Source of the DNA: Escherichia coli
Lineage (GTDB): Bacteria; Pseudomonadota; Gammaproteobacteria; Enterobacterales; Enterobacteriaceae
Reading direction: 5' to 3' (one strand)
Length of the DNA: 64,000 nt
Assembly (NCBI RefSeq): GCF_003334305.1
Contig: NZ_QOWS01000008.1
Shown: piece after piece, positions 8,757-8,795 of the stretch
Position numbering within the stretch: position 1 is the first letter of the stretch
Layout of the letters: the number at the start of each line of letters is the position of its first letter
Made by a program: the position numbers and the translations under genes
The notes under the pieces: model-generated
The model's input: the letters and a program-made list of their open reading frames with translations, nothing else
Databases searched by the model: none
What the model was told of the DNA's origin: nothing

Positions 8757-8795
8757 TCCCCTCACCCTAACCCTCTCCCCAAAGGGGCGAGGGGA
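8757..8795 (+). repeat. GC-rich extragenic repeat (Box C-like), copy 2
   Basis: cccctcaccctaaccctctccccaaaggggcgaggggac; same orientation as copy 1. Confidence 0.5.

Follow-up and report, generated by a model that had tools for sequence, protein, structure and literature searches.

The BoxC family of extragenic repeats has been described repeatedly and under different names, namely as the PIT element (Hoyne and Maher 2000), as TMECO (Holder et al. 2015, PMC4666352) and as HPG1 (Kaplan et al. 2016, PMC5100583). According to Holder et al. (PMC4666352), the TMECO elements are the earlier BoxC elements of the 1990s and the PIT elements. The original GenBank record of K-12 contained 33 BoxC annotations of 51-59 bp, and BoxC was also recovered as a stem-loop family by an independent survey. 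Holder et al. (PMC4666352) reported 3610 copies in 262 proteobacterial genomes and defined the TMECO pattern as 5'-CCCTCNCCC N3-6 GGGNGAGGG N3 GGGNGAGGG[G/T/C/-]-3'. They observed no orientation bias or gene-class bias, and the tests which they summarized gave neither promoter nor terminator activity and no in vivo effect. Moreover, TMECO/BoxC loci are – in statistical terms – unusually rearranged between strains, an instability which these authors attributed to structure-induced replication problems and not to recombination between copies. In the K-12 table of Kaplan et al. (PMC5100583), the G-rich strand of copies in tandem contexts is sense to the upstream gene in some cases and antisense in more. 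A search for literature on the BoxC family after 2016 gave nothing new.

Here, we analyze one putative 3' UTR copy in a 64-kb stretch of Escherichia coli DNA, which is called the window in the following. The gene order at the locus is frlR (plus strand), yhfS-yhfT-yhfU-php-yhfW-yhfX-yhfY-yhfZ (all minus strand), and trpS-gph-rpe-dam (all minus strand). A 601-bp query around the site was 100% identical to several RefSeq genomes, in which the flanking genes are annotated as trpS and yhfZ. The features of the locus are:

1674..1705, plus strand: REP-type palindromic unit GCCGGATAAGATGCGCCAGCATCGCATCCGGC, which adjoins copy 1 and belongs to another repeat family
1740..1782, minus strand: BoxC copy 1, direct repeat of copy 2, located between frlR and yhfS, which are convergent
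8658..8689, minus strand: intrinsic-terminator-like hairpin GAAACCGGGGAAACCCGGTTTT plus T-tract, presumed terminator of the trpS operon
8690..8756, minus strand: single-copy flank of 67 nt from element to terminator, outside the repeat
8757..8799, minus strand: BoxC / TMECO type A-mm / HPG1 element, copy 2, 43 nt, delimited as an exact repeat
8794-8784, minus strand: C block of copy 2 (positions of this and the next four parts from the sequence)
8783-8781, minus strand: first loop of copy 2
8780-8771, minus strand: G block 1 of copy 2
8770-8768, minus strand: second loop of copy 2
8767-8758, minus strand: G block 2 of copy 2
8800..8814, minus strand: spacer of 15 nt from the trpS stop codon to the element (plus strand: CCGAGCGTTTTGATA), present only in the BoxC-bearing allele
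8815..9819, minus strand: trpS coding sequence (tryptophan--tRNA ligase) with stop codon 8815-8817, according to the list of open reading frames and the RefSeq annotation of the 100%-identical region

An initial annotation had described 8757..8795 as the second copy of an element located at about 1741-1779. Both copies are indeed identical at 43 of 43 positions and have the same orientation; the extent originally proposed lies inside the element but ends 4 nt short of its trpS-proximal end (8799). Searching the 64-kb window with the 42-nt query TCCCCTCACCCTAACCCTCTCCCCAAAGGGGCGAGGGGACCG gave two exact matches on the plus strand (1740-1781 and 8757-8798), and in 100 dinucleotide-preserving shuffles this query had no match with up to three mismatches allowed. 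As determined by pairwise alignment, the exact direct repeat comprises 43 bp (1740-1782 and 8757-8799), and the flanking sequences of the two copies are unrelated on both sides. Neither plain patterns nor a search with three mismatches found any other full, half or degenerate copy in the 64-kb window. Both copies are intergenic, copy 1 being located between frlR and yhfS and copy 2 between trpS and yhfZ. The G-rich strand of copy 2 is the minus strand, CCCTCGCCCCTTTGGGGAGAGGGTTAGGGTGAGGGG, and is organized as 5'-ACGGT CCCCTCGCCCC TTT GGGGAGAGGG TTA GGGTGAGGGG A-3'. A comparison of three independent copies (trpS, frlR/yhfS, fabI) showed that the common unit has 43 nt, as opposed to the 51-59 bp of the old K-12 annotation, and that the flanks are unrelated; these flanks contain no target-site duplication, and apart from the internal palindrome there are no terminal inverted repeats. 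A short inverted repeat, CCGTAC ... GTACGG, surrounds copy 1 (window 1729-1793) and is absent at copy 2 and at the fabI copy. If the element were removed, the flanks of copy 1 would form a small 6-bp hairpin, as though the element occupied its loop.

Judged by its sequence, copy 2 is a member of the BoxC family. Its 36-nt core is letter for letter that of TMECO nos 7, 11, and 15, designated 'type A mm' in Table 1 of Holder et al. (PMC4666352). TMECO no. 15, which is HPGQ no. 38, is the K-12 copy between frlR and yhfS (PMC4666352; PMC5100583), and it is this K-12 copy of the published tables to which copy 1 of the window corresponds. On the minus strand, positions 8793-8758 read CCCTCGCCC-CTTTG-GGGAGAGGG-TTA-GGGTGAGGG-G in agreement with the TMECO pattern, and both the second loop TTA and the one mismatched triplet (CCCTCGCCC vs GGGAGAGGG) are those of subtype A mm. 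Copy 2 also contains dGGGAGAGGGTTAGGGTGAGGG, the invariant HPG1 21-mer of Kaplan et al. (PMC5100583), and possesses the four G3+ tracts, the loops of 1-7 nt and the C-rich block about 3 nt upstream which define HPG1. The accessible part of the K-12 table of Kaplan et al. (PMC5100583) lists the frlR/yhfS copy and none at trpS. In the current RefSeq record of K-12, no repeat feature is annotated at the frlR/yhfS or fabI copies; Rfam gave no match at gathering thresholds for the whole window, and at 8600-8900 there were only sub-threshold hits to irrelevant families. The genome-wide repeat search which the initial annotation had called for revealed a dispersed family: All 5426 complete E. coli genomes have matches to the 43-mer, each genome at 2-35 places (median 19). 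The family has been known from the 1990s onward, and recognizing copy 2 as BoxC adds nothing new; the initial annotation had missed this identity as well as the strain-variable status of the allele.

Outside E. coli, the motif GGGAGAGGG-NNN-GGGTGAGGG was found on at least 120 contigs of species-representative genomes. All matches listed belong to MAGs, and the lineages represented among them are alpha-, gamma-, and deltaproteobacteria, Gracilibacteria, Verrucomicrobia, Nitrospirales, and Armatimonadota. Among the matches listed, there are usually many copies per MAG, a matching C block is nearly always located upstream, and in most of these lineages the conserved part is limited to the core of about 36-40 nt. 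Two MAGs among the matches listed have the core inside a longer repeat; the idea that the core in general belongs to a larger MITE was rejected, as most distant lineages keep only these 36-40 nt. The matches in non-proteobacterial MAGs extend the published range, because Holder et al. (PMC4666352) had reported proteobacterial genomes. The 43-mer had additional matches on 435 plasmids (Klebsiella, Sinorhizobium, Rhizobium, Azospirillum, and others) and in 3 of 50,697 phage records. Plasmids of 35-47 kb from Klebsiella, Pseudomonas aeruginosa, Aeromonas, Enterobacter, and Citrobacter (for example NZ_KU578314.1, NZ_CP040685.1, and NZ_CP091178.1) repeatedly contain a BoxC-like sequence (39 nt, 89.7% identity), which suggests that these small plasmids share a backbone or transposon segment with one copy. 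The Campylobacter phages A18a and A11a have 97.6% matches at two places each; this is odd given the AT-rich host and may be due to contamination or chimeric assembly.

At the trpS 3' end, copy 2 lies between the stop codon (8815-8817) and a hairpin plus T-tract on the trpS strand at 8689-8661, close to the position 8664..8687 named by the initial annotation. This site consists of a 9-bp GC-rich stem, which extends on the minus strand from 8689 to 8668, and the subsequent TTTTTTTAT, the T-tract region reaching to 8661. From the stop codon to this hairpin, a scan of the trpS strand reported no further terminator-like site. Since, in addition, the element hairpin lacks a U-tract, co-transcription is the natural reading: The element is most likely part of a trpS 3' UTR of about 150 nt, with the G-rich strand in the RNA. 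The anatomy of the locus thus supports the 3' UTR membership which had been regarded as probable. Two candidate assignments were rejected. The element is not the trpS terminator, as no U-tract follows its hairpin and the scan reports only 8689-8661; the repeat does not extend into the 67-nt left flank, as this flank occurs at one place per genome. Sigma-70-like promoter matches cluster on both strands at window 8527-8574 just upstream of yhfZ (5 vs 0.7 expected from shuffles), which is consistent with a yhfZ promoter immediately past the trpS terminator.

The slot between trpS and its terminator varies among strains. The allele of the window, which consists of BoxC and about 82 nt of unique sequence, occurs in 1525 of the 5426 genomes; the 67-nt left flank is confined to these 1525 genomes and occurs once in each of them. 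Based on an evenly spaced sample of hits, K-12 and relatives, which have REP/BIME units in the trpS slot, account for about 30%, and an empty form with about 17 nt from hairpin to stop codon (e.g. Nissle 1917) for about 35%. Window-type, K-12-type and short alleles all retain the terminator hairpin. What separates the window-type allele from the others is about 125 bp of unique sequence and not a clean 43-bp insertion. The slot appears as a repeat hotspot, being occupied by BoxC in the window (8690-8814), by two REP/BIME units in K-12 (locus L002, 1846-2134) and by nothing in Nissle-like strains (loci L003/L004, 288-448). From this comparison, copy 2 is to be regarded as a strain-variable allele and not as a conserved regulatory element of trpS. 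The essential trpS works with each of these spacers; its expression therefore probably does not depend on the element, and the presence/absence polymorphism points to its neutrality for this gene.

The surrounding locus is variable as well: At least five arrangements exist among E. coli genomes, including one with copy 2 but without the frl operon (EH01-18-02). Between yhfL and trpS, the frl operon and the yhf cluster vary independently (frl plus yhf, yhf only, frl only), as read from Nissle 1917 (L129), EH01-18-02 (L137), and O157 (L130). BoxC copy 1 goes with the right end of the frl module and is located about 25 nt from the module junction. In PT109 and ECO2 (L138 and L139, about 700-742), copy 1 has a point mutation in G block 2 (plus strand TCCTCTCACCC vs TCCCCTCACCC), which breaks the fourth G-tract and lowers the identity with copy 2.

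We computed the folding of the element as RNA and as DNA. In trpS sense RNA, the C block and G block 2 are predicted to form 10 pairs including one G-U (-20.3 kcal/mol); the alternative pairing of the C block with G block 1 contains one A/G mismatch and reaches -16.7 kcal/mol. The element alone folds at -23 to -25 kcal/mol with z = -2.3, and in the 171-nt trpS 3' region the element hairpin and the terminator hairpin fold separately. A U-tract is absent after either BoxC hairpin, the following bases being GCAGGCAAGC. With DNA parameters, a three-tetrad G4 of the G-rich strand is slightly favored over the hairpin (-12.6 vs -10.1 kcal/mol), and the 64-kb window contains no canonical G4 motif other than the two BoxC copies.

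These last two results bear on the view that the element is a DNA switch, which by alternating between duplex, hairpin, G4, and intrastrand triplex would regulate transcription or replication locally; such a switch was proposed by Kaplan et al. (PMC5100583) and considered by Holder et al. (PMC4666352). CD and NMR data have been published for oligonucleotides of the family, which show stable folding as triplex or as G4/hairpin: Triplex signatures with a Tm of about 74 C were obtained for type A mm, and Kaplan et al. (PMC5100583) interpreted similar CD data as a G4/hairpin equilibrium. The core of copy 2 is presumably the very sequence used in these experiments, because the published control oligonucleotide equals the core with four G-to-C changes. 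The GC skew of the plus strand is negative across the whole window, which places trpS and the G-rich strand of the element on the leading-strand sequence; the G-rich strand, which is the non-template strand of trpS, would accordingly be exposed on the lagging-strand template. However, family oligonucleotides return to the duplex once the complementary strand is present, so that the duplex is preferred whenever the complement is available, and in vivo DMS probing gave no protection and detected no stable triplex. Furthermore, the element is located at an operon 3' end upstream of the terminator and not in a promoter, and it is dispensable in most strains. The support for a structural switch is in vitro only, and we consider this explanation very unlikely.

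The consequence of the repeat pair becomes evident in other strains. In 342 of the 5426 E. coli genomes, among them O55:H7 and O157:H7, yhfS-yhfZ is gone and a single BoxC forms the junction between frlR and trpS. In window coordinates, the missing segment is:

1783..8799: deleted segment of 7017 bp, comprising yhfS-yhfZ, the trpS terminator and one repeat copy; absent in 342 genomes

In O157:H7, which lacks yhfS-yhfZ, frlR is followed directly by the REP unit, one BoxC and then trpS; the junction is located at 7030-7159 in the O157:H7 locus (L130) and at about 4386-4515 in two further loci (L131 and L132). It consists of the left flank of copy 1, one BoxC and the right flank of copy 2, i.e. 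the CCGAGCGTTTTGATA which is specific for the window allele, and this 15-nt spacer is kept in every deletion carrier examined. Such a junction is the product expected of a crossover within the 43-bp direct repeat, which would remove 7017 bp, and we infer this mechanism. The direction of the event can be read from the arrangements: It is a deletion and not an insertion, because in BoxC-less strains such as Nissle 1917 the yhf cluster adjoins trpS, and because the single-copy form holds the end of the frl module only up to BoxC. The opposite view, an ancestral single-copy frlR/trpS arrangement, was rejected, as the frl end stops at BoxC and is followed by the right flank specific for copy 2, and BoxC-less strains have yhf beside trpS. 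In the O157:H7 and O55:H7 carriers, frlD is annotated as a pseudogene with an internal stop (L130 5413-6198; L132 2769-3554); it is intact in the isolate F2_407_2_2. A literature search on the loss of yhfS-yhfZ in O157 found nothing relevant.

Most carriers, including O55:H7, O157:H7, A16, Z1322HEC0005, SCU-316, and PapRG-04-4, share junction-proximal SNPs, which suggests one old allele for the majority. The bovine isolates F2_407_2_2 and 7_33_46A, by comparison, resemble the window on either side of the junction as far as the repeat. In the 110 nt examined to the left of the junction, they show no difference from the window, vs five for O55, and their trpS differs from that of the window at 3 of 780 nt, vs 18 differences from O55. 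The carriers thus fall into two junction haplotype classes, which indicate at least two independent deletions, as the bovine isolates require a second event. The notion that all carriers form one clone was rejected on account of these window-like flanks on either side of the junction.

One might ask whether the element is mobile, as a MITE-like unit or as the att site of a dedicated recombinase, has inserted itself at trpS, and actively excises the yhf cluster. The site at trpS is polymorphic for presence and absence, the copies are located at the borders of the variable frl and yhf modules, an identical precise junction arose at least twice, and members of the family are found in many phyla as well as on 435 plasmids. 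Yet 43 bp of perfect homology suffice for ordinary homologous recombination or replication slippage, and we know of no transposase associated with BoxC. Target-site duplications and, beyond the internal palindrome, terminal inverted repeats are lacking at the copies compared, the window-type allele is set apart by about 125 bp of unique sequence instead of a clean 43-bp insertion, and the family is nearly absent from phages. In addition, Holder et al. (PMC4666352) saw no link to mobile elements. Taken together, active mobility seems exceedingly improbable.

In the carriers, the deletion has also removed the intrinsic terminator of trpS (O157:H7 L130 7030-7165 vs window 8658-8689), and a scan found no terminator-like site left on the trpS strand. 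The BoxC and REP hairpins are all that these genomes have between trpS and the convergent frlR. The trpS 3' region of a carrier is predicted to fold as an extended BoxC hairpin, whose stem is lengthened by the new flanks, and a REP hairpin (z = -4.1); in O157, the REP unit which lies beside copy 1 forms a strong hairpin there. An essential trpS operon lacking its terminator would fit a role of BoxC in 3'-end formation or protection.

These carriers bear on the explanation that the element is a functional RNA module, whose hairpin would – as with REP elements – block 3'-to-5' exonucleases or help to define the 3' end and in this way set the stability of the trpS mRNA. REP units can stabilize upstream mRNA, and such units occupy the trpS slot of K-12. 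The fold predicted inside the presumed trpS 3' UTR is stable; in the 342 carriers without canonical terminator, BoxC and REP are the sole strong structures after trpS; and a scan of the yhfS strand near copy 1 likewise found no terminator-like site. On the other hand, the slot is empty in about a third of the genomes, a canonical terminator hairpin is already present 67 nt downstream, and family copies have no consistent orientation relative to upstream genes. Moreover, published reporter tests showed neither terminator activity nor an influence on RNA polymerase (PMC4666352). We therefore judge it unlikely that the element serves as an RNA module.

The explanation which we prefer, with a probability of roughly 0.8, is that copy 2 is a dispensable BoxC copy in the trpS 3' UTR, whose real consequence is that of a recombination substrate. 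With 15 nt separating it from the trpS stop codon and 67 nt from the terminator, it would be co-transcribed into the trpS 3' UTR, where the G-rich strand could fold as a stable hairpin. For trpS, the element would be a dispensable passenger and not a regulator, because the slot is empty or filled with REP/BIME units in most strains. Recombination between the identical copies, which are 7 kb apart, would then lead in some lineages to the precise loss of yhfS-yhfZ and the trpS terminator. Note that the near-invariance of the core in E. coli and the recurrence of the three-block layout in distant phyla suggest some sequence constraint, which a purely passive model does not explain.

A bolder version states that the BoxC pair, being prone to form a hairpin, triplex or G4 on the lagging-strand template, actively promotes precise excision of the 7-kb yhfS-yhfZ cassette at rates well above those of ordinary 43-bp direct repeats, and that BoxC and REP form the trpS 3' ends in carriers such as O55:H7 and O157:H7; we regard it as rather doubtful. 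If it were true, yhfS-yhfZ would be a BoxC-bounded cassette that is recurrently lost. The locus offers a sequence-resolved, worked example of BoxC copies reshaping the accessory genome (342/5426 genomes, at least two origins), and recombination between copies would be a simple mechanism behind some of the BoxC-linked instability described in statistical terms in 2015. Furthermore, the deletion carriers are natural strains whose essential trpS operon no longer has its intrinsic terminator.

How does the element compare with known systems? With REP/BIME units it shares the small size, the GC-richness, the hairpin formation and the intergenic location; REP/BIME units are often found in 3' UTRs between stop codon and terminator as well, they fill the trpS slot of K-12, and one REP unit adjoins copy 1. 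BoxC belongs to a different sequence family, however: It has no palindromic unit of the GCCGGATG/GCCTGATG type, no unit GCC(G/T)GATG...CATC(C/A)GGC was found within 8757-8799, and BoxC possesses a third G block with triplex or G4 potential, which REP lacks. To our knowledge, there is no RAYT-like transposase for BoxC. Like an intrinsic terminator, BoxC forms a GC-rich hairpin in the 3' region of an operon, but it has no U-tract, and the terminator-like site is located 67 nt further downstream. It does not resemble a MITE, as there is no duplication in the flanks of the three copies and no clean insertion between alleles.

Deletions mediated by direct repeats are known to occur between dispersed repeats such as IS, REP, and rRNA operons. 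The junction observed here, at which exactly one copy remains with its left flank from copy 1 and its right flank from copy 2, is of this kind; in contrast to IS, REP, and rRNA operons, however, the BoxC repeats have just 43 bp and are themselves structure-prone. With the published BoxC/PIT/TMECO/HPG1 elements, copy 2 has in common the core, the three-block layout, the TTA loop, the single mismatch, the intergenic location, the multi-copy occurrence and the hypervariable locus. The element itself is identical, but copy 2 is absent from K-12 MG1655 and is thus missing from the K-12 tables. Only two points go slightly beyond the accessible literature, namely the deletions between BoxC copies and, in O55/O157, the trpS operon without its terminator. 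The former agree with the rearrangements described by Holder et al. (PMC4666352) and add a simple mechanism for at least one case.
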